Of a DNA stretch of 64,000 nucleotides, positions 13,535 through 64,000 are shown piece after piece. Below the pieces are notes generated by a model that saw nothing but the letters and a program-made list of their open reading frames with translations, was not told where the DNA came from and made no database searches. Within the stretch, counting starts at the first letter, position 1. Each line of letters begins with the position of its first letter. The DNA is from Thermodesulfobacteriota bacterium. GTDB lineage: Bacteria; Desulfobacterota; Desulfarculia; JACQYL01. The position numbers and the translations under genes were made by a program. The DNA is taken from contig CAXXLZ010000002.1 of NCBI GenBank assembly GCA_963675595.2, positions 3,232,001-3,296,000 on the forward strand, given 5' to 3'.

Positions 13535-15558
<2,024 letters not shown>

Positions 15559-39016: not shown

Positions 39017-39093
<77 letters not shown>

Positions 39094-39143: not shown

Positions 39144-41024
<1,881 letters not shown>

Positions 41025-49605: not shown

Positions 49606-50778
49606 CTACTTCCACTTGTTCGAAAAACCCAGGGCAAAGGCACGGAACACGAGCCGCAGGAAGCCGGGATTGTCCAATATGATTTTCTCCGAACCCAGGG
49701 TTCCGCGGAAGGATGCCGCGTCTTCCGGTTTGCCGGAAACCGTCGCAGCAATTTGTCCCGCATAGGTGATCATGATTTCTTGGGCGCAGCCTTGAGGCAG
49801 AACGCCCCAGGTCAGTTTGTCCTTCAAATGCACCAGGGCCGCCACCGCCGCCACGGTTACGGCGTCGCGTTCGATCTCGGAAAAGTTCTCCTTCAACAGC
49901 CGGGCCGACTCCGCATCGAGGAACCCTTGAATCCCCTCGATCATGCGCGTTTCGTCCGTCCCGAATCTTTCCACATGGACCAGCGAGGAGCACCGGCTTA
50001 GAGGCGTCATCTCGTTCTGCAGTTCCAGGGCTTTCTTGACCGCCGTTTTAACGACCCGGCCGATGAGCTCCCCCAGTTTGACGTGCTTGCCCGCTCCCGC
50101 GAGCGGCACGCCCGTACCCAGCATGCACGCCACGGCGATTTGATCCGTTCCGGTGCCCGTGGCCAGGCCGTCGGAATAGCGGGAATTGACGGCCAATTCC
50201 TGTAGCGCGGCCGTCTTGGCTTCCGCGGCGGTCATTACGGTTCGCACCAGGGCTCCCGACGTAAGTTCCTTGTTGATGCACACTATGGTGTTGATGGTTC
50301 CTTCTTGGGGAAGCGCCTCCTGATTAAGGCTCTCGTAAACTCCGTCATGCTCGTAGCAGGAAGCCGGGTCTCCCGCCCGGCCGGCGTTGGTTTCCACACC
50401 GCCCGTGACCACGGCGGCGACCTCCAATTCGCGGAAGCGTTCGGACACGACGGCCGCGTTGTTCATGTTGGCGGCCGTTCCCAGGGTGGCGCATTCCTCG
50501 GGCGGCAATCCGTGCCGTTCGCACACGAATCGACGAAATTCGCTCGGCTCCAACGGGTTGGTGCCGGGAAAGCTTTTCATATGCCGGCCGTGGGGTTCGC
50601 ATCCCTGGTGGTTGTAGATGTACGTTTTTTCTTCGCTGATGCCTCCGTCGCAGCGGCAGGTGGAGATGATGCGGTGAGGGGAGAGGAACCTTACAATGAT
50701 GATCTTTTCTCTTCGCTCCACTTCCACATGACCGTACAGGGTTTCCAACAGCATCATCCTCTCCTTGTATTTGCTCAC
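49606..50778 (-). CDS. cbiZ: Adenosylcobinamide amidohydrolase
   Basis: LGTAANM, VTGGVETNAGRAGDPA, GTINT, EAKTAALQEL, ATGTGTDQ, GKHVKLGELIG. Confidence 0.88.
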   Translation of the reverse strand: MSKYKERMMLLETLYGHVEVERREKIIIVRFLSPHRIISTCRCDGGISEEKTYIYNHQGCEPHGRHMKSFPGTNPLEPSEFRRFVCERHGLPPEECATLGTAANMNNAAVVSERFRELEVAAVVTGGVETNAGRAGDPASCYEHDGVYESLNQEALPQEGTINTIVCINKELTSGALVRTVMTAAEAKTAALQELAVNSRYSDGLATGTGTDQIAVACMLGTGVPLAGAGKHVKLGELIGRVVKTAVKKALELQNEMTPLSRCSSLVHVERFGTDETRMIEGIQGFLDAESARLLKENFSEIERDAVTVAAVAALVHLKDKLTWGVLPQGCAQEIMITYAGQIAATVSGKPEDAASFRGTLGSEKIILDNPGFLRLVFRAFALGFSNKWK

Positions 50779-52940: not shown

Positions 52941-53121
52941 CTATTGTCCATAGGTTATAGACCCTGTGCGCCCAAGTACACATTAGGCCTGTAGCATGAG
53001 AAGAAGTGGTTGTCGAATCAAAAGCTCGAACAGGCGGAGGGTGCTATGGAAGTATTGTGATCCGACGTAATTTCACCTTGACTTATCCCGCTATGCCGTG
53101 CGAAGGAATATGAACATTATT

Positions 53122-53277
53122 TGCAGGTGCGAAAGCTTAATAGGGAACCCCGTGAGAGTCGGGGGCGGTCCCGCCGCTGTGACCGGGAACGAACTCCTCG
53201 GAAGCCACTGCGAGTCTGAAGACTGGTGGGAAGGCGAGGAGTGTAGATGGATCCGGGAGCCAGAAGACCTGCCTGCA
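53122..53277 (+). promoter_or_regulatory. Cobalamin riboswitch 1
   Basis: AGGGAA..CCGTG..A.TCGGG.GCGGTCCCGCCGCTGT, GCCACTG, GGGAAGG and the B12 box AGCCAGAAGACCTGCC; hairpin plus T tract at about 53352-53390. Confidence 0.93.
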
Positions 53278-53445
53278 AGGACGGAATGGATTGGGCGCTG
53301 CGGTGAATTGTGCCCGATTCGGTAATGCAAGGGATCAAGAAAACTGGGTGCAGTCCCTGAGTCCTCATGGCTCGGGGATTTTCTTTTTTCCGGGCCGTGG
53401 GTTCCAAAGACCGTTGGAAACCAACAAGGCGTGAGGAGGTAGGTT

Positions 53446-54909
53446 ATGAAGTCCCTGAAGGCGGGCGTTCTGGCCATGGTCTTTTTGCTTGCGGCAACGG
53501 CGGCTTATGCGGAGTACGGGGGCATCTGGAAGAACGCCGATCAGACCATCAATATCTGGCTTTCCGAACACGATACCCGGGCCATGACCGCGGTCCGCAC
53601 ACCGGACCTGACGGCGTTCGAGTCTTTTCTGGATTCCGATTTCACGAACGGATTCGACGCCATGGAACTGAGCGGTCTGGGCAGCCGCCTGCAAATCACC
53701 TTTACCGGCGATACCACGGCAACGTGTACTTACACACCGTCCGGCGGTTCCCCCGTGGTCGACGAGCTCACCAAGAGCTTCGGGGGGGCTTACTGCGGAT
53801 TCGTGTTTGCCACGGGCGGCTTGTTCAGCGATCCCGAAGGGCTGACCTATCGCCTCACCGCCTCGTCCCCCTTCAACATCGGGGAGTTCAAGGTGGCCAA
53901 CGGCGACGACTTGATCGTGTACGAGGACTCCTTCGTCCGCGTGTACGGAGACAATGCGTATTTTATCGGCCGATACGGCAGCGACACGGTAACCGTCATG
54001 AAAGCGACCGAATTGCAGGCCGACCCCGTGGTTCAATACAGCGTGGGGCCTGAAGACACCATGGGCGATCTGGACCTGCCGACGCCCCAGGCCTCCACCA
54101 ACCCGCACGACATGGTGTTTTTGAGCGAGTCGACGGCTTATATGAGTTTCGCCGGCGCGAGCGCGATTCTGAAGCTCAACCCGCTGACGGGCGAACGCTT
54201 GGCGTTGATCGATGTGTCCGCCTACTGCGAAGGCGACGACGAGTTGCCCGAGGCGAGCCCCATGGCCAAGGTGGGACAATATATCTATGTGGCGCTCAAA
54301 CGGCAGGATCGAAACAACAGTTGGAAACCGGATATTCCCGTGATCATCAAGATTGATACGGAGACGGACACCATCGTGGACCTGGACCCGGTCGCCGAAG
54401 GGGTGCAGGGGATCACCCTGTCGCTACGCAATCCTTCCGCCATGGAATACGTGGAGGCTCGAAACGAGCTGTATTTGTCGTGCACCGGTGACTCCAACGA
54501 TGCCGAAGTACCTTCGGGCGTGCAGATCATCGATGTGCTCACCGACACGGTGAAGGGGGCGATTCTTACCCCGGCGGAAACCGGATATCGAGTGTCCATT
54601 CTTCGGGCCTCCAGTGCATCCAAGGCGTACATCATCGGGTACGATGATTCGGCCGACTGGCCGTGGCCCTATTTCCTCAGCGAGGTGGACCTGAACAGCG
54701 GGCAGGTGGTGGACGACAAGTTTCACTCGGTTGATTACTATATTCCGGACATGGCCCTGGGATGCAAAGACTGCGGTTGCCGGCTGTTCGTCCTGGATCG
54801 ATCGGACGAAGACCCGGGCATCTGGATATTCGAGACTCAGGGGAATACATTGCTCGGTAAGGCGCAAACCATGCTGCCTTTGGCGGGTATGGCGGTGATG
54901 GAGCGCTAG
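53446..54909 (+). CDS. B12-riboswitch-controlled secreted protein: one GIW module plus a YncE/BtuG-like beta-propeller
   Basis: AGGAGG RBS; signal peptide ending AYA; YGGIWKN..; NPHDMVF.S.S.AY, IYVALKRQDR, NPSAM.Y, GVQIID repeats. Confidence 0.75.
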   Translation: MKSLKAGVLAMVFLLAATAAYAEYGGIWKNADQTINIWLSEHDTRAMTAVRTPDLTAFESFLDSDFTNGFDAMELSGLGSRLQITFTGDTTATCTYTPSGGSPVVDELTKSFGGAYCGFVFATGGLFSDPEGLTYRLTASSPFNIGEFKVANGDDLIVYEDSFVRVYGDNAYFIGRYGSDTVTVMKATELQADPVVQYSVGPEDTMGDLDLPTPQASTNPHDMVFLSESTAYMSFAGASAILKLNPLTGERLALIDVSAYCEGDDELPEASPMAKVGQYIYVALKRQDRNNSWKPDIPVIIKIDTETDTIVDLDPVAEGVQGITLSLRNPSAMEYVEARNELYLSCTGDSNDAEVPSGVQIIDVLTDTVKGAILTPAETGYRVSILRASSASKAYIIGYDDSADWPWPYFLSEVDLNSGQVVDDKFHSVDYYIPDMALGCKDCGCRLFVLDRSDEDPGIWIFETQGNTLLGKAQTMLPLAGMAVMER

Positions 54910-55021: not shown

Positions 55022-55978
55022 TCAGCCCAGAAAGAAATATCCGGCCCCCACGAGGAACAGCACGGCCATGCGGGCGGCATTGTTGCAGACGATGAGGAGC
55101 ATGGCCTGCCTGGGCTTGAAGATGCTCGTGTAATAGGGCAGTTGGGATCGGATCGCCAAGATCGGCGCTGATACGAAACTGCCGATGATCATGAGCAACA
55201 CCACCTGTTTCGCGGTTAATTCTCCGTTTTCCAGAAGTGCTCCCGCAGCCGCCAACCCCGCGGTGTACTCGCCCGTGAAACGGATCACCAGAACGCTCAC
55301 CGCCTGTGGAGGAAGCCATTCCAACCAGCTTACGCGCTTCAGAAGAACCTGTTCCAGCCATTCGAAAAAACCCAACCGGATCAGTGCGAAGACGGCGACA
55401 TACACGGGCGTTGTGGCGAGGAGAATTCTCTTGATCCTTACCACAAAACGGCTCTTGAAGTTTTCAAACACCTCGCGGCGGGTCGGCCGGGCGGTCTGTT
55501 CGGAGGAGGGGACTTCAACAGGAATCGGGCGGGAGGATCGATTCACGATCCTGCTGATGAGCAGGACCACGGTAAAACGAAGCACGGACCCCAAGTAGGT
55601 GAGGCCCACGTATACGAACGCCGCGGATCCAAGAAAGGAGGCCGTCAGCATGAGCAACATGGGCAGTTCCTGCAACATCAAGGGCAAGGTGTTCAGCATG
55701 TTGGCGAGGACAAGGTCGCGGGTCGTTAATTTCCCTTGTTCGTGGGCTTCAGCGAGCAAGGTATTGGCGGCGATTCCTGAAAAAAAGGCGAAGCACAGAC
55801 TTGCGCCGGCCGTCTGAGTGAGTCTGCCGGCTCGTATCAGGGGACTCGCCAGTTTGGAAATTCGCTGAATCCAGTTCATCGCCTCCATGAAATTGGCCAC
55901 AGCCAGGCTCACGGAGATGAAAAGAACGATCTGGAGGAGGGGCTGGATCAACCCTTCCCGGATTTCATGAAATGTCAT
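55022..55978 (-). CDS. Nucleoside-recognition (Gate) domain membrane protein
   Basis: Polytopic; AFFSGIAANTLLAEAHEQG, R.QLPYY.SIF.P; directly downstream of cobN. Confidence 0.75.
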   Translation of the reverse strand: MTFHEIREGLIQPLLQIVLFISVSLAVANFMEAMNWIQRISKLASPLIRAGRLTQTAGASLCFAFFSGIAANTLLAEAHEQGKLTTRDLVLANMLNTLPLMLQELPMLLMLTASFLGSAAFVYVGLTYLGSVLRFTVVLLISRIVNRSSRPIPVEVPSSEQTARPTRREVFENFKSRFVVRIKRILLATTPVYVAVFALIRLGFFEWLEQVLLKRVSWLEWLPPQAVSVLVIRFTGEYTAGLAAAGALLENGELTAKQVVLLMIIGSFVSAPILAIRSQLPYYTSIFKPRQAMLLIVCNNAARMAVLFLVGAGYFFLG

Positions 55979-56106
55979 GGTGATGGACCGATTGTCGAGG
56001 CGCCTCCGCGTCCCTCTTTGCGGTCGAATTCGCGATGCATGCCGGGCTCGAATCCTTGAACAGGAAATCGGTTCGACCGGGAAATTGAACGGACGGATGG
56101 ACCAGT

Positions 56107-59100
56107 CTATGATTTCTTCGGATTCATCCGCCATTTGGTGTTCCATTTTTCCACGTCGCCCCGAGTCAGAATATTCACTTTGCCCCCTTGGAATTCCTCC
56201 CGCACCTCCCCCATCGTTTCTTCCATATCGCCTTCAATCTCCAAGGCCGTGATTTTCACGGCTTCAAGCAGGTCCCGGTCCGCATCCCACATCCCTCTCG
56301 CCTGCGCCTCCAACAGACGTCGGGTGATCTCCTCAAGGGCGTAAGGATTGTGAGACCGCAACCAGGTCAGGTTTTCCTTATTCAGGATGTATTTCTCCAC
56401 CACGCCGTCGAAGAGCCGCTTGTCCACCTGTTCCGTAACGGCGCTCCATTTGAAGAGATTTCGGACGCCGGAAGAAACGAGTTCGGCTCCTTGGCCGCCG
56501 TGCTCTTTCAGGCCCTCGATCCAGCGGTCGTTCATGAGCTTGGCGCGAAACGCGGCTTCGACGGCGCTTTTCGTATCGTGGATTTTGTTCTTTCCTTGGG
56601 GGGAGGCATCCGCCCAATACAGCTTGGCGGCTTTGCCTCCCAGCGACTTGGCCGCCATGGATACGGCGCCTTGGCAGGTGGCATAGCATCCTTCATCCAA
56701 AAGGTCGTATTCCGGAGAATATTGCTTCATGTAGGAGACGGATACGTTCTTGAGGTGCCCGGCGTAAAGATCATAAGCTTCTACCCCGAAAGCGTCCGGT
56801 TGGCCGGAAGCGCCGTAGGCATGGCCTCCCCAGTTCACGTAGATTTCGGTCAGGTCCTTATGGTCGTTCCAGGCCGAGGCGTCGATGGCCAAATCCACCC
56901 CGATGCCGTAGGAGCCCGGAGGTGAGGAGAATACGCGAAAACCGGCCAGGCGACGAATTCGATCCATGGAATGGGAGGCCCCCATGGTTTCCCGGAGTTC
57001 CCTCATCCGTTCATCGGTATGTTTGCGGACGAAGTTCCACTCGTGGGGCTCGTCGAGGTCCCCGACGAACAGGACCGCGTGATCGAGGATATCGATGAAC
57101 GTGGGCAGCATGTCTCGCACGATTCCGCTTGTCTGGATCAGCACGTCGATTCTGGGACGGGAGATTGCGCTTCCCGTGTGCAGCAGGACCTTGAGCTCGT
57201 CCAGAGGGATGGGCTCCGTCTTCTTGAATCGGCCGTCGGAAGCCCACACGGGTTTCACGCCCATAAGGTACAGAATCTGGCACAGCACCTCGCCGTCGGA
57301 TTTGAAGCCGTCAATGCTCCAGAGGTTGACGGCCACGCTTTCAGGAAAGGTTTTCTCTTCTGTCAGATACTTCGTCAGAAGCGCATCCGCCCTCTGCTTG
57401 CCGATTTCCCAGGCAGCGGGGGTGGGCAGGGCACCGATATCCACGGCGAAGAAGTTACGGTCCGTGGGCAATGCACGGGTCTTTCCCATGAGCAAGGAGC
57501 CGGCCGGTCCCGGTTCGACGTATTTCCCGTCGAGGGCTCGGAGCAGCTGTGGAATCTCGTTCGAACACTCGACAATCCTCTTGTACAGCTCTCTTCCCCA
57601 GGCCTGTATTATGAGAATCTCGGAATCTCTTCCAAGTTGGGACGGCACGTCGCCCGAAAGGATTCGTCCGATTACCCGGCTTTGCACCGCAAAATCATCG
57701 GACCTCGCGTCCTCGAGTTTGCTCACCACACGGCTCAGCTCCGGCAGACCCTCGGGACTCATTCTCAGCATGCCGGTCAGCATCTGAGCAATCTGTGTTG
57801 CGTTCGGTGAGCGACCGAAGACGTGCAATCCCTCGGGAGCGAAGGAATTTCTTGTCAACTCGATCTGTCGAATCCAAAGATCGGCTTTTTCCGGGAGATC
57901 GTCCATGGGGTCGATTTCATCCGTGAACTTCAGCTTTTTCAGAAGGGGTGCCAGGCGTTCCTTGAGGACCTCGGCTCTATCCTCTTCACGGAAGCGGGCG
58001 GCTTTTTGATATTGTTCGAGCAGGTCCGCGAGTTCCTCCGTTTCCCGGTCCGTTTCCGCAGGTCGATAGACGGGGGTCAGATGGTCCACGATCACCGCCC
58101 GGCCCCGTCGCTTGGCCATCAGCCCTTCACCCGGGACATCCATGCAATAGGGATAGATATTGGGCAGGTCCCCAATGGAGATTTCGGGAAAACAGGCGTC
58201 CGACAGGCCGGCGCTCTTGCCCGGCAGGAATTCGAGCGCGCCGTGCGCGCCGAAATGCACCACGGCGTCCGAGTTTTCCTGAATGTACTTATACGCGGCG
58301 ATCCAGTGATGGGGAGGAGCCAGTTGGGGGTCATGAAGGATACGGCAGACCTCGCCGGTGCATTTGGGACCGTAGCAACCGCGCTTGGGTTGTACCATGA
58401 TACGGATGTTGCCGTACTTCAACCCGGTGACCAGGACGTATTCCTTTCCACCTTCGTTCCACGCCATGCCTTGGCCGGGAAAGGCTCCCCAATCTTGAAG
58501 CAGTCGGTCCCGAGCCGAGTCCGGGAGTTCGTCCAGGTAGGACTCATACTCTTCCGCGGAAGTCTTGTGCAGCACTCCGCCTTTGGCGACGATCTCGTCC
58601 ACCGTGGTCCATCGGAATTCCGATATGGCCTTGCGAGTCATGATGGTTCTCTTGAGGCCCTCGCCGGTCAAAGGAACGTCCTCCAGGAAGTAGCCTCGGT
58701 CCTTCATGGCTTTGAGAACCGAAGCGAGGCTTTCGAAGGTGTCCAGACCCACGGCGGAACCGATGGTGGCTTCCACGCTTCTGCATGGAGCGTTGTGCAG
58801 GACGAAGGTGATGCGTTTTTCTTCATTGGGGAGCTTTCGCAATCGAATCCACTTCTCAAGGCGTCGGCAAAGCGATTCCATTCGTTCCTTCACCGCGACA
58901 TATTCTCCTTGGGGGGTGGGCAATCCGGCGGGCGCCTCCGGTTGGACGGCCGTCAAGGTCGGTTCGATGGCTCCGGCTAATTCAGGTTGAACCAGGGAGT
59001 ACACCATGCTGCTCGGCGGCAGGCCGGCCGGGTCCTCGCGCCATGCCCGTTCGCTTCTGTTGTACAGTCGTATGAGCTGAAACAACGGGACATCCAGCTC

Positions 59101-59865
59101 TCTCAGGAGGGACACGTCCTCGGTTTTCGACAGGAGCCGGCCCGCCGTCAAATTCAGTATCGCCTCAGCGGATCCGCTTCGTTGGAAATATTTGAGCCAG
59201 GGATAACGCCTTTCTTTGGGGAGGGCGCCGTCGTACATGCCTTCACAGAACACGCAGATGGGAAGGAATCCGTGGTTTTCAAGGGTCCGGATCAGGGCGT
59301 CGATTTCTCGAGTCTGCCGTTCCACGAGTTGGCCGTAGTAGAAAAGGATTCCCACGACGGATCTACGGCCACGCGGAGGGTGCTCTTGGTCATACCAATC
59401 GAAATAGTCCGAAGTGGATTCAAAGAATTGGGGGGCGTCGGTATGGTAGATTCCGTCCGTGCGCACGCTTTGGACCGCACCCACGGCCCCTTGGAAGCCT
59501 GCGTGCGAGGCGAGGAAGCGAATGCCGTGTCCGAAATTGTCCGCCGAAAGCCTACTCAGATACGCGCGCATTCTTTCCGCATCGTCGCGGGACAGCGTTG
59601 TAAAATCTTTCGGCATTTCGATGCCGTAACCGAAACGAACGGGCACCGCCGTCATCAGTTCGAGGAGTACGTCGAATCCGGGAATTTCTCGGGACAGATC
59701 GGCCGCAACACAATCGACCCCGCCTTCCAACAGGGCCCGGCGAACCGCTTCCCACCCATACTGGCTGAAGGCTCGAAGTTCGATGCCCTCCGAAGAGAGC
59801 GATTCCGACACCGGTTCCCATAAGCGTCGATTGAACATATGGCCTTGAATCAGCAGGATTCTCAT
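56107..59865 (-). CDS. cobN: Cobaltochelatase subunit CobN
   Basis: QPELAGAIEP, QPKRGC, ILHDP..PPHHW, HFGAHGALEFLPGK, AKRRG, LPT.RNF, RPRIDV, SGIVRD, NPYAL. Confidence 0.92.
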   Translation of the reverse strand: MRILLIQGHMFNRRLWEPVSESLSSEGIELRAFSQYGWEAVRRALLEGGVDCVAADLSREIPGFDVLLELMTAVPVRFGYGIEMPKDFTTLSRDDAERMRAYLSRLSADNFGHGIRFLASHAGFQGAVGAVQSVRTDGIYHTDAPQFFESTSDYFDWYDQEHPPRGRRSVVGILFYYGQLVERQTREIDALIRTLENHGFLPICVFCEGMYDGALPKERRYPWLKYFQRSGSAEAILNLTAGRLLSKTEDVSLLRELDVPLFQLIRLYNRSERAWREDPAGLPPSSMVYSLVQPELAGAIEPTLTAVQPEAPAGLPTPQGEYVAVKERMESLCRRLEKWIRLRKLPNEEKRITFVLHNAPCRSVEATIGSAVGLDTFESLASVLKAMKDRGYFLEDVPLTGEGLKRTIMTRKAISEFRWTTVDEIVAKGGVLHKTSAEEYESYLDELPDSARDRLLQDWGAFPGQGMAWNEGGKEYVLVTGLKYGNIRIMVQPKRGCYGPKCTGEVCRILHDPQLAPPHHWIAAYKYIQENSDAVVHFGAHGALEFLPGKSAGLSDACFPEISIGDLPNIYPYCMDVPGEGLMAKRRGRAVIVDHLTPVYRPAETDRETEELADLLEQYQKAARFREEDRAEVLKERLAPLLKKLKFTDEIDPMDDLPEKADLWIRQIELTRNSFAPEGLHVFGRSPNATQIAQMLTGMLRMSPEGLPELSRVVSKLEDARSDDFAVQSRVIGRILSGDVPSQLGRDSEILIIQAWGRELYKRIVECSNEIPQLLRALDGKYVEPGPAGSLLMGKTRALPTDRNFFAVDIGALPTPAAWEIGKQRADALLTKYLTEEKTFPESVAVNLWSIDGFKSDGEVLCQILYLMGVKPVWASDGRFKKTEPIPLDELKVLLHTGSAISRPRIDVLIQTSGIVRDMLPTFIDILDHAVLFVGDLDEPHEWNFVRKHTDERMRELRETMGASHSMDRIRRLAGFRVFSSPPGSYGIGVDLAIDASAWNDHKDLTEIYVNWGGHAYGASGQPDAFGVEAYDLYAGHLKNVSVSYMKQYSPEYDLLDEGCYATCQGAVSMAAKSLGGKAAKLYWADASPQGKNKIHDTKSAVEAAFRAKLMNDRWIEGLKEHGGQGAELVSSGVRNLFKWSAVTEQVDKRLFDGVVEKYILNKENLTWLRSHNPYALEEITRRLLEAQARGMWDADRDLLEAVKITALEIEGDMEETMGEVREEFQGGKVNILTRGDVEKWNTKWRMNPKKS

Positions 59866-59922
59866 GTTCGTCTCCCCGATTGCGGCATAGGACGACCGGA
59901 GTCGTCTCGTCGGCGAATCAAT

Positions 59923-59955
59923 AAAAAAACCCCCTGTCTCGAAAAGACAGGGGGA
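59923..59955 (-). terminator. Riboswitch-associated terminator upstream of cobN
   Basis: CCCCCTGTCT/AGACAGGGGG hairpin with a T7 tract on the minus strand. Confidence 0.8.
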
Positions 59956-60053
59956 TTGCACCCGGTTTCCTTCATCCCCTAAATAGATGAGGGATCTCTC
60001 GGATCCTCAAGAGGCAACGGGAGCCTCACGCTCCCTCACTCTCATCTTATGAA

Positions 60054-60215
60054 ACCGGCAGGTCTTCTGGCTCTCGGATCACCCTAATCCCCGCGCCTTC
60101 CCAACGGATTTTCTCCGACAGTGGCCTCGTGCGGGTTTCGTTCCCGATCACAGCGGCGGGACCGCGACGAATTCACATCGTCTTCCCTATTGTTCCTTCT
60201 TAGAAGGACCGATTC
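60054..60215 (-). promoter_or_regulatory. Cobalamin riboswitch 2 (cobN)
   Basis: Minus strand reads AATAGGGAA...GCGGTCCCGCCGCTGT...GCCACTG...GGGAAGG...AGCCAGAAGACCTGCC. Confidence 0.92.
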
Positions 60216-60372
60216 CGTTGAAAGCTCTATCCAAGAGCGCCGGCGGAGTCAAGTACAATCGCACGAACCGTTTGAAGACCCCGCTTCCCCGGACTATGTT
60301 TCACACGGGAGTCAGGATTAACTATGAATATCGAACTGTTATGGCCTCTTTCGGGAGCGGGGGATTTGTTGG

Positions 60373-60400
60373 TTGACAGCTTTCCCTTTTTCGATATGAT
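60373..60400 (+). promoter_or_regulatory. Sigma-70 promoter for the riboswitch 3 unit
   Basis: TTGACA-16 nt-TATGAT just upstream of the riboswitch. Confidence 0.6.
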
Positions 60401-60412
60401 TGTCTTTACGTT

Positions 60413-60566
60413 AACAGGTGCTCATCCGAGCTGAAAAGGGAATCCCGTGAAAATCGGGAGCGGTCCCGCCGCTGTGATCGGGGATGCGTCCGCTAATGCC
60501 ACTGTCCGGAAAGGACGGGAAGGCGCGGTCGCCGAACAGACCCGAGAGCCAGAAGACCTGCCTGTT
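60413..60566 (+). promoter_or_regulatory. Cobalamin riboswitch 3
   Basis: AAAAGGGAATCCCGTGAAAATCGGGAGCGGTCCCGCCGCTGT...GCCACTG...GGGAAGG...AGCCAGAAGACCTGCC. Confidence 0.93.
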
Positions 60567-60639
60567 GGACCTTCTATAGCAACCCCGCGGTAAGGGTTTC
60601 GTAGTATGACGACGGTTTTTCGGGCAGCTTGAAAAACTT

Positions 60640-60678
60640 GTCGCCTGATCCTTGATCCAGGCGACCGGTTTTTTTTTA
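60640..60678 (+). terminator. Riboswitch-associated terminator
   Basis: GTCGCCTG...CAGGCGAC hairpin followed by a T9 run. Confidence 0.78.
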
Positions 60679-60754
60679 TGCTTGAAAGCCCCCGTCGGCG
60701 AGCCTCGGGTCCGGAAGTCGGATATCGCGGGATATGAAGTGCGGGAGCGTGCGG

Positions 60755-61525
60755 ATGTCCGGCATCCCTCCGGGGGAGGCGACATTTCAAGGGGCGGTGC
60801 TCCTTTATCTTTTCGGGTTCTTCGCGTCGCTTTTCAGAGCTCGGCGCTTGAGCCGGATATCGATCGGTCTGGGATTGTGCTCGAACCTGCTCTCCGCTGG
60901 GGCGAGATATTACAATGCCTGGCCCCTCCTTCCTCTCTTTCAGGGACCTTTTTTCCTTCCGCTGTTTTTCGGTGTATGCTGCACATCCCGCTTCCGGGAC
61001 GACCACCCGAAGGTCCCGCTCTTCAGCGGGGCGTTGGCCTTGATGGGCTTGACGGCCCTCTTCTTTCCCAATGATTTCTATGTTCCGTTCCTTAAATCGA
61101 AGACGATCTTTTCCCACCTGTATTTCGTCTTCGGCGTGGTGGGCCGAGCCTGCTTTTTCATGAGCGCCCTCTGGGCCGTTCTGTTCCTCATCGACAACAA
61201 GAATCAAAACAAAGGCGGAATGGGTCCCGTTTACACTTGGGTTGTCCGGGGATTTGTTTTCTGGACCCTTTCCATGTTTTCAGCGGAAGCCTGGTCGTAC
61301 TTGAGTACCGGATACCCGGTGGTCTGGGAAGATGCTTCCATGACCACGACCATTGCGGCCTGGTTCTATTATGCCTGCTTTCTTCACCTGCATCTTTACG
61401 GGGTCTGGAGCCTGAAGTTCAGGTCCATCTTCGCGGCAATAGGCGCCGTTGTCGTGTTCACGTTTACCAGTTATCCGGAGCTTGGGGCGTTCCGGATTCC
61501 CGAATTCAGATGGGCTCGGTTTTGA
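60755..61525 (+). CDS. Divergent CcsA/ResC-like (cytochrome c assembly family) membrane protein
   Basis: Polytopic; P.LKS..IFSH, GFVFWTLSMFSAEAWSYLSTGYPVVWED...AAWFYYACFLH resemble CcsA with a degenerate WWD motif. Confidence 0.7.
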   Translation: MSGIPPGEATFQGAVLLYLFGFFASLFRARRLSRISIGLGLCSNLLSAGARYYNAWPLLPLFQGPFFLPLFFGVCCTSRFRDDHPKVPLFSGALALMGLTALFFPNDFYVPFLKSKTIFSHLYFVFGVVGRACFFMSALWAVLFLIDNKNQNKGGMGPVYTWVVRGFVFWTLSMFSAEAWSYLSTGYPVVWEDASMTTTIAAWFYYACFLHLHLYGVWSLKFRSIFAAIGAVVVFTFTSYPELGAFRIPEFRWARF

Positions 61526-61820
61526 CTCGTATTTGGGACTTCTGGTGCAGCGTCCGACTGACGGTGCTGTTGCTTTTTTTGATTATGATCGATCTTTGGA
61601 TCGGTTATTTCGTGCTCGAATCTCACAAGAGTTATTTTGTTCCGCTTAATCAACTCGGATTGACGGAGTGGGCCGGTACGTATGGTATTACGCATCCCTT
61701 GATCACGAGTTGGTTTTTTGTTCTTGTTTTTCTACTGGCCTCTTTGGGGTTAAATACGTTTGTTTGCACCACCGACAAGCTGATTTCATTACTTCGTGCA
61801 TATTCATCGTTTCCAAGCTT

Positions 61821-63696
61821 GATGCCGTCGTAAGAACCCCCCTTTACGAACAGGGCTGTTTTTTGGAGCATTGGAAGTTCAAGCGGCCATTGCAACACTG
61901 CCAAGGTTACTGTCATCGTGACATAGGCTACAAAGACGACGGAAATTATCGTTGCTGCCTCCCTCTATCGAGTTGGAAAGGGCCTTCTTGGCCTTATCAA
62001 GGCGGCTCTGGACGAACCTCTTGATGTTGATGGCCAGGGCCTTCATGAAAACAGATAAGGTGACCCGTTTTTTGCCTCGGGTCCACGATCGTTTCAATCC
62101 CGTGACCCGATCCGCTTCGGAGATGGTGGCCTCGATGCCGGACCGGATTTTGTAGCGTTCTTTGAAATCATGGCTTTCCTGCTGTAGTCTGCGCTTGGAG
62201 GTCGCCATGTCCTTGCGCTTGTACTTCAGTCGATAATTTCCGCCCTTGATCCGTTTTACCGGACAGATGGGGAGAAATTCGCATAGGAGACAGTGCTCGC
62301 GGGAAAACACGGCTTCCACCGCTTTGCCGCGGTCAACGATCTTGCATTCAAGTGGCGCGTGCCCCCGGATACAGTAAACGACCTGGGTGCAGTCCTCGTT
62401 CGTTTCAAAGTCACTCAACTGCATCTTATTGAGATCCGGCGCTTTTCCGCAAGTCACCGGAGCGGTAAGCTCGACTCCGTGCTCGTGAGCTTGAAGGATG
62501 TTCTCGCCGCTGCCGTAGCCTGCGTCGGCGAACAACTCTTCGGGTTTGCGGCCCGTTTCCTCCAGGCGTTCGATAACGGGCATCACGTCTTTCTGGTCGC
62601 TGTCATAGGAAGGGGCCACGTCCACATCGGTGATCACCTGGAAGGGATTTTCCTTCACGCAGGTCTCCGTGAGGGAAGCCTTATATCCTTTGCCCTTGCG
62701 CCCATAGGTGGCGTCGGGATCCGAAGGATTCTGCAGGGAGTCCGCAGGGATTTCCTTGGGCTTCTCGAGTTCTGTTTTGTCGGGATCTCCCTCGGTGAAA
62801 CGGCATTGCTCCGACAGTAGTCGGGCCATCAGCCGGTATTCTTTCATTCGGCTGATTTCCGGATGACCTCGGAAGCGGTCCACCAGGTCGGCGAGATGGC
62901 GGGCGGACTTGTCCAGACGACGCTTGGCCCGCGATGATTTTGCATCGGCAAAATAGCCTGCGCGCTTCAAGTAGGCCTTGTCGTAAAGTCGGGGCAGTTT
63001 CTCATACAACTTGGGATGTTTCTTATGGAGCCGTTTCAAGAACGCCTCGATGGTGCGCGTAAAGAGCCCCAGACGGCTCAGATGAGCCATGTTGGAAGTG
63101 ATCTGTGTGGAGTCCAACCGCTGTTTGTCCGTGCTAAGGGCCGCCGTCTCGATGATGGCGTCCGTGATTCCGGTAAAGAGGCTCCGCGCTTGCTTGTTGT
63201 CGGTAATCAAGGTCCGGAAATTGTGCAGGGTCTTCTGGCAGACGTGAGATTCAAAGGCGTTGATGTTGAAGGCATATTGCCAACGCAGATCGAAGTCCAG
63301 AGCGCCCAAGACTTCCGCATCGGTCAGGCTGTTCATTTCCTTCAAAACACACGCTCCGACAAGGATGGCCACGGGTCTGTTGGGCCTGCCGTTGTCCTCA
63401 CAGTAGAAAGGCCGGAAAGACTCCTCATCGATCATGGGAAGCACCAGGCGCCGGAACGGACCGGCCCACGTCTTCTCCAACGCCTCGATCCTGTCTGCGG
63501 GAAGGCAAATATCGTGGTCGAAAATGGTCTTTTGCGTTCTCTTAGGCCGAAACAAAACAACCCCCCTAAGGACCATATTATTAATCAAGTCAGATACTTA
63601 TCATACAGGACCCAAAAGAAAGGTCAACCCATAAATGCCATTTTTATTCATATTTTCAACTAGATACCTTTACGGAGAGGTTTTTACGAACTCATC
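61821..63696 (-). mobile_element. IS1182/IS5-like insertion sequence
   Basis: IRs GATGCCGTCGTAAGAACC / GGTTTTTACGAACTCATC; AAGCTT target duplication (61815-61820, 63697-63702). Confidence 0.88.
61879..63576 (-). CDS. DDE transposase (IS1182-like)
   Basis: GRPNRPV, RLDSTQI, LQNPSDPDATY, GYK, ADAGY, YKIRSGIEATISE. Start is approximate. Confidence 0.88.
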   Translation of the reverse strand: MVLRGVVLFRPKRTQKTIFDHDICLPADRIEALEKTWAGPFRRLVLPMIDEESFRPFYCEDNGRPNRPVAILVGACVLKEMNSLTDAEVLGALDFDLRWQYAFNINAFESHVCQKTLHNFRTLITDNKQARSLFTGITDAIIETAALSTDKQRLDSTQITSNMAHLSRLGLFTRTIEAFLKRLHKKHPKLYEKLPRLYDKAYLKRAGYFADAKSSRAKRRLDKSARHLADLVDRFRGHPEISRMKEYRLMARLLSEQCRFTEGDPDKTELEKPKEIPADSLQNPSDPDATYGRKGKGYKASLTETCVKENPFQVITDVDVAPSYDSDQKDVMPVIERLEETGRKPEELFADAGYGSGENILQAHEHGVELTAPVTCGKAPDLNKMQLSDFETNEDCTQVVYCIRGHAPLECKIVDRGKAVEAVFSREHCLLCEFLPICPVKRIKGGNYRLKYKRKDMATSKRRLQQESHDFKERYKIRSGIEATISEADRVTGLKRSWTRGKKRVTLSVFMKALAINIKRFVQSRLDKAKKALSNSIEGGSNDNFRRLCSLCHDDSNLGSVAMAA

Positions 63697-64000
63697 AAGC
63701 TTGTATAGGTTTGTGTTCAAGTTGTCTCCACACTTAATGCATTATGCCGTATTGGTAATTTTATTGGGTTTTCTCGTGAGCTACCTGACGTCGTCCGTTT
63801 ATCCGGGAAAGATATTGCTTCCGAATACACCAATCAATCTGCCCGGATCGTCCTTTTCCATGGTCATGAAAGCAATGGACGTCGAGTTCTACAACGGGTC
63901 TCGGTTGGGGTTTTTAGAGGATCAAGCCATGGAAGTGACCGCGCGGGTCGACTTTCGGGATCAGGAAGGTCGGCCGTTAAAGGAAGCCGTTCTGGCCGTC

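Follow-up and report, generated by a model that had tools for sequence, protein, structure and literature searches.

Why would a gene pair resembling CcsA and ResB, the subunits of system II for cytochrome c biogenesis, stand directly behind a cobalamin riboswitch? The question is raised by the last 3.6 kb of a 64,000-nucleotide stretch of DNA, here called the window, from a Thermodesulfobacteriota bacterium (assembly GCA_963675595.2, contig CAXXLZ010000002.1, positions 3,232,001 to 3,296,000). An earlier note, made from the letters of the window, had seen in this pair a possibly repurposed translocator of corrinoids or cobalt-porphyrinoids. To our knowledge, heme-handling proteins of the WWD superfamily are known only from cytochrome c maturation. 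Based on the analyses presented here, we favor with moderate confidence that the pair is a diverged two-subunit member of this superfamily that acts in a B12-repressed salvage system of the TonB/BtuFCD kind, most likely for corrinoids, and that it is not a cytochrome c synthase. The molecules it handles are probably of the B12 type rather than heme. The earlier note was partly confirmed: its observation is real but was incompletely read, and its interpretation points the right way, with the mechanism unproven.

The arrangement on which that note built is present, i.e., the CcsA-like gene is the first open reading frame (ORF) behind a B12 riboswitch and cobN is divergent from it (Table 1). The riboswitch covers the full RF00174 model (positions 1-189) and scores far above the gathering score of 31.5 bits. 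Directly 5' of it lies a sigma-70-like promoter, called from its consensus match alone. Downstream, a GC-rich hairpin with a stem of 9 pairs (found by a palindrome scan, which lists it on the minus strand) is followed on the plus strand by a T run that begins 3 nt past the stem. Promoter, riboswitch, and hairpin with T run together form the usual transcription-terminating layout, which suggests that the hairpin and T run at 60640-60677 are likely the expression platform of the riboswitch.

The genes beyond position 64000, which the earlier note had proposed to read, complete the operon. The pair, of which the C-terminal part of the ResB-like gene extends past the window, is followed by genes for a BtuF-like binding protein, BtuC, BtuD, ChlD, ChlI, a radical S-adenosylmethionine (radical-SAM)/SPASM enzyme, and a second CobN. 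The BtuC protein (NF003001, 197.5 bits) and the corrinoid-type ATPase (NF007082, 230.7 bits) both score below the equivalog cut-offs; ChlD (TIGR02442, 805 bits) and the second CobN (TIGR02257, 956 bits) score above theirs. A homologue of the BtuF-like protein at another locus (L038) matches PF01497 (Peripla_BP_2) with 55.8 bits. A Peripla_BP_2 binding protein, a FecCD permease, and an ATP-binding cassette (ABC) ATPase are thus encoded together, as in type II importers of the BtuFCD kind. The CobN-ChlID proteins show no signal peptide.

This neighborhood recurs at other loci of the family. A word-indexed search gave 40 CcsA-like clusters, one of them named from Desulfobacula toluolica. In an exhaustive profile search of 1.84 billion representatives the family proved small: 57 proteins passed a threshold of E<=1e-30 and 162 passed one of E<=1e-10, and their length is almost always about 250 amino acids. 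One CcsA-like copy is present in 28 of 95 genomes of the window's class, and 30 of 401 sampled genomes of the phylum match the family at E<=1e-25. An atlas look-up yielded nothing but "Cytochrome C assembly" clusters, which came from Myxococcota and Thermodesulfobacteriota and offered no clue to function. In each of the 20 class loci viewed with 11-20 kb of context, the CcsA-like gene is followed in order by an intact ResB-like gene and the genes for BtuF, BtuC, and BtuD. ResB-like and BtuF genes also adjoin the CcsA-like gene in all 10 high-scoring loci from other classes; among the eight of these with wide contexts, the order holds through BtuC in every case and BtuD was matched in seven. 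Altogether, BtuF- and BtuC-like genes are colinear with the pair in 28/28 wide contexts and CobN is encoded in 25/28, often with a radical-SAM gene and ChlID. A TonB-dependent receptor or TonB/ExbB genes share the operon of the pair in all four loci that we annotated with Pfam: a TonB-dependent receptor is encoded directly upstream in three (G078, G069, and G052), while the fourth (G046) instead has a DUF3450-ExbB-TonB-TPR set. Genes for CbiK, CbiZ, and tetrapyrrole methylases are among those alongside, and in two genomes a CbiK chelatase gene and BtuCDF-like genes under further riboswitches adjoin the locus.

The riboswitch recurs as well. RF00174 was found on the same strand within 1.5 kb upstream in 15 of the 27 other class loci, and a whole-genome RF00174 search placed a same-strand riboswitch 2.3-8.3 kb upstream in 10 of the remaining 12, where the pair follows receptor genes or radical-SAM and CobN genes. 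Among the 10 loci from other classes, seven have a riboswitch within 10 kb and two more at 10.6 and 15.4 kb; in the last, the contig ends 1.5 kb upstream. In total, a riboswitch on the same strand lies no more than 10 kb upstream in 32 of 37 loci. The genomes hold 4-17 riboswitches per 1.9-6.5 Mb, and we estimate the linkage expected by chance at ~1%. From gene order and riboswitch position, the pair would lead a vitamin B12-repressed uptake operon here and in related sulfate-reducer genomes, and it behaves like a constant component of a B12-repressed unit that also comprises TonB receptor, BtuFCD, and CobN.

The CcsA-like protein is only modestly short (256 amino acids compared with 281 for the canonical CcsA of the same genome), and to this extent the earlier description of it as short stands. 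Its ORF spans 60734-61525, and the ATG at 60755 behind GGGAG is the likelier start, with the upstream ATG at 60734 as the alternative; residue numbers given here count from the Met at 60755. It scores 27.8 bits with PF01578 (Cytochrom_C_asm), just below the cut-off of 29.9, and 28.2 bits with the CcsB equivalog TIGR03144, far below the cut-off of 187.6. Family members in 12 other genomes reach 27.5-56.4 bits with PF01578, all but one above the cut-off. The AlphaFold2 (AF2) model (predicted local distance difference test [pLDDT] 90.2) has eight helices and shows the four-helix core of WWD proteins. In VIA-align comparisons, the best match overall was CcmF (6zmq; Z 18.8, 238 amino acids, root-mean-square deviation 3.9), followed by CcsBA (7s9y; Z 18.6, 239 amino acids, root-mean-square deviation 3.6, chain residues 616-890). 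The next unrelated rows lie at Z ~11, well below both, and the core helices of the model match CcmC at Z 10.6-11.3. Likewise, hhalign aligned the family with canonical CcsA at a probability of 96.4 (E 1.4e-9). A profile search of PDB sequences with the family matched no CcsBA, CcmF, or CcmC; the homology is visible only by fold and hhalign.

The motifs quoted in the earlier note are all present in the protein: IFSH contains H121, a WWD-like loop rich in Trp spans residues 177-193, and FLHLH contains H211 and H213. The WWD superfamily is defined by a core of four helices, the WWD loop, and a pair of histidines in the periplasm (P-His1 and P-His2); CcsBA additionally has two membrane histidines (TM-His), one per subunit, and P-His2 is the axial ligand that the CXXCH histidine displaces during heme attachment (PMC10663686; for this and the other PMC and bioRxiv sources cited, statements refer to the accessible parts of each). 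The TM-His equivalent, H211, is kept in 54/54 family members and aligns with canonical LLHARY by hhalign. The P-His1 equivalent, H121, is a histidine in 49/54 and aligns with the histidine of canonical LKSNWLIAHV, a residue labeled as P-His1 based on PMC10663686 and our reading of the alignment. In the Trp-rich loop, W180 (54/54), W185 (52/54), and W191 (53/54) are placed by hhalign on the canonical WWD motif; however, the consensus is altered to WSYLGWxxPVxW from WGxYWxWDPKE, and the window's copy has T for the middle Trp. A conserved P-His2 was not found among the 54: 48 have no histidine at all past the start of the last helix and 6 have one at scattered positions, and the structural alignment of the model to 7s9y stops at chain residue 890. 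The loss of P-His2, which cytochrome c synthases require, argues against a role as cytochrome c synthase, and the kept membrane, P-His1, and Trp sites argue that the pair still binds a tetrapyrrole. With the B12 riboswitch and the BtuFCD linkage, these observations support the earlier suspicion that heme attachment is an unlikely role.

Nor does the family stand in for the canonical proteins. The source genome also carries a canonical ResB-CcsA pair (254.6 and 201 bits) and a third CcsA (144 bits), and canonical copies occur beside the divergent one in 12/12 other genomes searched. In a maximum-likelihood tree of 55 rows (a quick search, unrooted and without bootstrap), a branch of length 2.87 with a Shimodaira-Hasegawa-like approximate likelihood ratio test (SH-aLRT) support of 100 splits 18 canonical rows, including copies from the same genomes, from the family; grouping with canonical CcsA was among the outcomes named in the earlier note as refuting it, and those outcomes were not observed. 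For this tree, five ORFs of >320 amino acids were cut to the last 300 before alignment, and the rows with doubtful ORF limits (L117, L118, L125, L131, and L133) lie on a separate long branch, which we do not interpret.

The ResB-like gene had been read as a single ORF overlapping the CcsA-like gene. The overlap is there; the single ORF is not, and an insertion sequence that splits the gene had been missed. Aligned to 19 intact homologues, the two pieces abut exactly, the N-terminal one corresponding to homologue residues 1-103. The SPHLMH motif noted before is present but lies in the C-terminal piece past the insertion sequence, and its PHLMH holds two invariant histidines; both histidines of the family's PHxMH are invariant in 26/26 homologues. 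The C-terminal part scores 26 bits with PF05140 (cut-off 24.6), and two intact homologues score 32.9 and 42.5 bits, matching profile positions 151-268 of 486 only. The AF2 model (pLDDT 90.5) keeps four helices and matches 7s9y with a Foldseek E of 7e-7, and hhalign relates the ResB-like family to canonical ResB at a probability of 93.1. The beta domain of the model, whose start aligns with canonical ResB, comprises ~100 amino acids, where the canonical protein of the same genome has ~250.

The transposase of the insertion sequence (ORF 61879-63588, minus strand) is of the DDE type (PF13751 [DDE_Tnp_1_6], 59 bits; also PF01609 and DUF772), and BLAST against the genome found at least 21 further full copies of 99.8-100% identity. 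An empty site is seen in another sequencing run (X3), in which one 11.6-kb contig covers 60400-61813 and then 63696-64000, skipping 1882 bases. A contig of run X5 has the same 61813-63696 joint, and near-identical DNA without the insertion sequence thus occurs in two other studies; contigs of run X1 end at the boundaries of the insertion sequence. The insertion in the ResB-like gene is therefore a recent one, specific to this strain, where it probably also keeps the rest of the operon silent. With the ResB-like gene split and the other operon genes located downstream of the insertion sequence, the system probably does not function in this genome. The broken copy and the intact, near-identical copies in other samples make a natural pair of mutant and wild type. 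As a side observation, the copies in the genome include a head-to-tail pair 2 nt apart (C2:3852921-3856684), and contigs of runs X1 and X9 carry a matching end-to-start joint with "TA" between the ends; copy number and head-to-tail pair point to a recent burst.

The gene that follows the pair has a feature of its own. The ORF of the BtuF-like binding protein seems to stop after 278 codons at a TGA, yet the frame runs on for 106 codons, and gene callers would truncate the protein at 278 amino acids. The TGA aligns with Cys270, which is invariant among homologues; this codon is TGA in 7/29 loci, including the source genome, and encodes Cys in 22/29. A common hairpin begins ~15 nt past the TGA in 7/7 TGA loci, compared with 3/21 Cys loci by our reading of the folds, and the source genome has a tRNA-Sec. 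A TGA aligned with Cys, a downstream hairpin, and a tRNA for selenocysteine (Sec), the marks of a bacterial selenoprotein, are thus all present. Because the hairpin folded alone from a single sequence is not better than shuffles (z -1.07), the argument rests on its presence in all seven TGA loci. We consider the binding protein a probable selenoprotein. A selenoprotein "cobalamin-binding protein BtuF" with a CxxU motif is listed in the accessible part of a 2026 review (PMC13188914); the motif here is G-x-S/H-U-L/I-E, with no Cys at -3, and we do not equate the two families. Haft and Gwadz described other selenocysteine-containing binding proteins, which have a different fold (bioRxiv 10.1101/2022.07.06.499078, accessible part).

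Docking supports that the binding protein would sit on the periplasmic face of the pair. In a three-chain model, the pair of G046 with its binding protein as partner scored 0.79 (0.77-0.81 in three runs), and the best of three controls scored 0.00. In the calibration of the tool, 58 of 80 solved complexes attained this mark, as did 2 of 110 mismatched pairs; the calibration is only roughly valid here, with alignments that we built ourselves and three chains. Each chain had its own alignment, that of the binding protein comprising 21 of 28 rows; the runs agree in at least 88% of contacts, and the pLDDT of the partner is at least 87. The modeled interface holds family-invariant residues of the CcsA-like (111-114 and 253-256) and ResB-like (41-62, 137-150, and 215-231) subunits and of the binding protein (35-59, 159-164, and, flanking Cys270, 263-265 and 272-280). 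On the CcsA-like side, it would be formed by the conserved FPxDxYLPF loop and by the C-terminal tail, where canonical proteins carry P-His2; on the ResB-like side by a periplasmic loop and the beta domain; and on the binding protein in part by a family-specific N-terminal segment. No structure of a CcsBA-type protein bound to a binding protein of this kind is known to us, and no search aimed at one was made.

Table 1. Features of the locus. Positions are those of the window; L009 is the numbering of the locus that extends beyond it.
Feature	Position	Strand	Basis
CcsA-like gene, 256 amino acids, first ORF behind the riboswitch	60755-61525	+	ORF, PF01578, fold, alignment
ResB-like gene, N-terminal part, 103 codons and 1 base	61510-61819	+	Start ATG 61510 overlaps the CcsA-like stop
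ResB-like gene, C-terminal part	63702-64000, on to 64210 (L009 6210) beyond the window	+	In-frame resumption
BtuF-like binding protein	64180-65334 (L009 6180-7334), beyond the window; TGA at L009 7014-7016		ORF, alignment
Cobalamin riboswitch aptamer RF00174	60399-60579	+	Rfam, 122.1 bits, E 3.9e-30
Sigma-70-like promoter, TTGACA-16-TATGAT, directly 5' of the riboswitch	60373-60400	+	11/12 consensus matches
Terminator-like GC-rich hairpin and nine-T run	Hairpin 60640-60665, T run 60669-60677	+	Read from sequence
Insertion sequence, 1878 bp, TGATG... inverted ends	61820-63697	-	Transposase, ends, genome copies
AGCT target-site duplication, left copy	61816-61819	.	Sequence
AGCT target-site duplication, right copy	63698-63701	.	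Sequence
Second cobalamin riboswitch, serves the divergent cobN operon	60040-60228	-	RF00174, 114.7 bits
CobN-family chelatase subunit gene cobN1, divergent from the CcsA-like gene	56107-59961	-	PF02514, 1048 bits
Gate-domain (nucleoside-recognition, FeoB-type) membrane protein, downstream of cobN1	55022-56146	-	PF07670, 36.6 bits
Third cobalamin riboswitch	53108-53290, precedes ORF 53446-54909		Rfam

We prefer a mechanism in which the pair would be a periplasmic station for hand-off or processing, where the Trp-rich loop and P-His1 hold the tetrapyrrole. Under B12 scarcity, the riboswitch would let the operon be read in the order CcsA-like, ResB-like, BtuF-like, BtuC, BtuD, and then ChlD/ChlI, the radical-SAM/SPASM enzyme, and CobN; the elements and their order are as described above. 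Based on homology and conservation, the two subunits would form a CcsB-CcsA-like complex in which the two invariant membrane histidines enclose one tetrapyrrole site and the Trp-rich loop and the P-His1 equivalent build another in the periplasm. The binding protein would dock through its family-specific N-terminal extension and the loop around the Cys/Sec, and this residue may replace the absent P-His2 as second axial ligand. A metal-tetrapyrrole could then be passed, or processed and passed, between the pair and the binding protein, which would serve import by BtuCD, and in the cytoplasm CobN-ChlID and the radical-SAM enzyme, by their linkage, would act on the imported molecule. More tentatively, and less probably than salvage itself, the pair could be a repurposed CcsBA-type channel that carries a corrinoid or cobalt-tetrapyrrole and exchanges it directly with a Sec/Cys-ligating periplasmic binding protein.

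A different role for the same parts has some claim, though we doubt it. A residue at which Cys and Sec exchange is usually redox-active or binds a metal, and BtuM sets a precedent for ligation of cobalt by a cysteine with decyanation. A CcmF-like redox module could therefore pass electrons from a b-heme held by the membrane histidines to a periplasmic Co(III) corrinoid, reducing or de-ligating it so that the Cys/Sec binds the cobalt before import. The model fits CcmF as well as CcsBA, and the two TM-His of CcmF hold a stable heme (PMC10663686, accessible part); however, no quinol site or electron donor was identified, and with the computational tools used this role looks the same as the hand-off that we prefer, and both could hold. 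Somewhat less probable still is that the pair moves its cargo outward, such that a tetrapyrrole, e.g., a cobalt-free precursor, is exported from the cytoplasm by way of the membrane-histidine site to the periplasmic one, metalated or loaded on the Cys/Sec protein, and re-imported by BtuCD, the whole serving as a cobalt scavenger. Both TM-His are invariant, and CcsBA needs them for the passage of heme from the inside to the outer site (PMC10663686, accessible part). The modeled docking of an acceptor parallels the pairs CcsBA/apocytochrome and CcmC/CcmE, and the CbiK and BtuCDF-like genes under further riboswitches in two genomes would fit such a scavenger. Nevertheless, the export of a precursor under B12 scarcity followed by its re-import would be costly, the TonB-dependent receptors and TonB/ExbB of the same operons point to uptake from outside, and the ATP-driven CobN-ChlID show no signal peptide.

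The remaining two explanations place the pair outside transport, and we give neither much weight. HemX has a regulatory role in Bacillus and Staphylococcus, and a HemX-like sensor of tetrapyrroles could adjust biosynthesis or transport here without moving a substrate. PF01578 proteins outside cytochrome maturation do exist, among them a ResC/HemX-like protein encoded among heme-synthesis genes in Geobacter (PMC2700814, accessible part). Nonetheless, the constant pairing with ResB-like and BtuFCD proteins, the start/stop gene overlaps, and the modeled docking fit a transport complex better, and a sensor is very unlikely. Least probable, to the point that we would hardly expect it, is a dedicated synthase for a single B12-related c-type cytochrome, as NrfI is for NrfA. 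The homology of the pair to CcsA and ResB and the frequency of extra CcsA copies in these genomes would allow it, but P-His2 is not conserved, the TIGR03144 score is 28 bits against 187.6, the ResB-like periplasmic domain is much reduced, and the BtuFCD linkage is constant. Moreover, no cytochrome gene appeared in the context queries and Pfam scans, in which multiheme genes were not specifically searched for.

Several points weigh against the salvage reading that we favor. The substrate is assigned solely from the riboswitch and the neighboring genes, and co-transcription from riboswitches 2-8 kb away was checked by gene direction in four loci only. In CcsBA the fold exports heme, whereas in CcmF it carries a fixed heme for electron transfer, and the model is equally close to the two; outward translocation, inward translocation, and a CcmF-like fixed electron-transfer heme would all fit the data. 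The P-His1 equivalent is Gln in 5/54 family members. By sequence, the solved protein nearest to the binding protein (4ovk, E 1.2e-11) goes by no more specific name than "periplasmic binding protein", and the NCBIfam matches of the binding protein, to IsdE and BtuF, were only weak. The docking figure is a confidence of the model, not a measurement. The ResB-like gene is broken in the source genome, and this strain therefore lives without it. Finally, a distant sister subfamily (97-139 bits with the family profile) lacks the B12 context: its CcsA-like/ResB-like pair adjoins a TonB-dependent receptor gene, usually without BtuF, and an Rfam scan found a B12 riboswitch in 0/7 of its loci, arguing that the module is not tied to B12 by nature. 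These loci (L095, L096, L097, L099, and L109, from other families of the phylum) have as further neighbors a fusion of an Oxidored_molyb-like domain with a tetrapyrrole methylase and an amino-acid-permease-type (APC-type) transporter. Its gene content suggests another uptake locus linked to tetrapyrroles that has not been described before. In general, the module probably handles tetrapyrroles during TonB-dependent uptake, with B12 control specific to the window's family.

Among known systems, the closest is system II (CcsB-CcsA/ResB-ResC; Helicobacter hepaticus CcsBA, 7s9y and 7s9z), with which the pair has in common that it consists of two subunits, the CcsA fold, N-terminal helices of the ResB type and the beginning of the beta domain, one membrane histidine per subunit, the P-His1 equivalent, and a Trp-rich periplasmic loop. 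It differs from CcsBA in having no conserved P-His2, an altered WWD consensus, and a ResB-like subunit of ~275 rather than >430 amino acids, and in standing under B12 riboswitches in BtuFCD/CobN operons, whereas CcsBA genes lie in cytochrome or thiol-redox contexts. In system I (6zmq, 7f02, and 8ce1), CcmF is the best structural match and CcmC matches the core helices; CcmC, with its ABC ATPase and the hand-over of heme to a periplasmic chaperone, offers a formal parallel to the pair, the binding protein, and BtuCD. However, the operons of the pair lack CcmE, CcmH, and CcmAB, their ABC proteins form a type II importer that works with a binding protein, and P-His2 is absent.

On the side of B12 uptake, the locus has in common with BtuB-BtuFCD the riboswitch, genes for TonB or a TonB-dependent receptor, a Peripla_BP_2 protein, a permease of the FecCD type, and a corrinoid-type ATPase; the binding protein here differs in its extra N-terminal segment and its invariant Cys/Sec. 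No described Btu system with CcsA/ResB-like subunits was found in the literature searched. In the hmu/BtuS loci of Bacteroidota, which likewise serve tetrapyrrole salvage, a CobN-family protein is linked to a TonB-dependent receptor: the CobN-like BtuS/HmuS proteins act in heme salvage, and the BtuS class has been proposed for metalloporphyrin salvage (PMC6460266 and PMC12583661, accessible parts). As far as these accounts go, HmuS/BtuS are membrane-bound or periplasmic and iron-regulated and their loci lack a CcsA/ResB-like pair, whereas the CobN here comes with ChlI/ChlD, has no signal peptide, and would be under B12 control; a function cannot yet be assigned to most CobN homologues of anaerobes (PMC12583661). 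Two "CcsA" (PF01578) genes are also present in the BT2473-BT2482 locus of Bacteroides thetaiotaomicron, which serves nutrient acquisition and not cytochromes; this uncharacterized iron-starvation locus is, in the accessible part of the report, iron-regulated rather than B12-regulated and has other neighbors (PMC10434189), and its likeness to the pair is by annotation alone. The earlier note had known of no such system, and the literature searched, which left most subscription journals uncovered, held no description of one and no link of CcsA/ResB or cytochrome c assembly with a B12 riboswitch, corrinoids, or Btu genes.

A branch without the synthase's second histidine, locked into B12-repressed uptake operons, would widen the known uses of the WWD fold. 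It would also mean that corrinoid salvage involves additional steps in sulfate reducers and related bacteria, major producers and consumers of B12 in anoxic sediments. If the pair is indeed a repurposed channel, it would provide the first non-heme substrate for the heme-handling superfamily, the first complex of one of its members with the binding protein of an ABC importer, and a sixth and seventh component of B12 uptake in anaerobes. The locus also joins three problems, namely, the function of CobN/ChlID paralogues in anaerobes (PMC12583661, accessible part), the accompanying radical-SAM enzyme, and the Cys/Sec binding protein.

Further genes of the window deserve mention. The Gate-domain protein downstream of cobN1 is encoded in the same direction behind the second riboswitch; as a metal-permease-like partner of a chelatase-family protein, it recalls the pairing of HmuS/BtuS with FeoAB in Bacteroides. 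Behind the third riboswitch, the ORF at 53446-54909 (plus strand) encodes a 487-amino-acid protein with a signal peptide and without a Pfam family, which may be a secreted corrinoid-binding protein. CbiZ, an adenosylcobinamide amidohydrolase (49606-50778, minus strand, 204 bits), is a further corrinoid-salvage protein encoded near the locus, and CbiZ likewise adjoins the locus of the pair in genome G069. Elsewhere in the window, Rfam matched group II intron domains at 13562-15558 (RF02003 and RF00029) and at 39229-39515 (RF02001 and RF01998), the latter just past a tRNA at 39017-39090.

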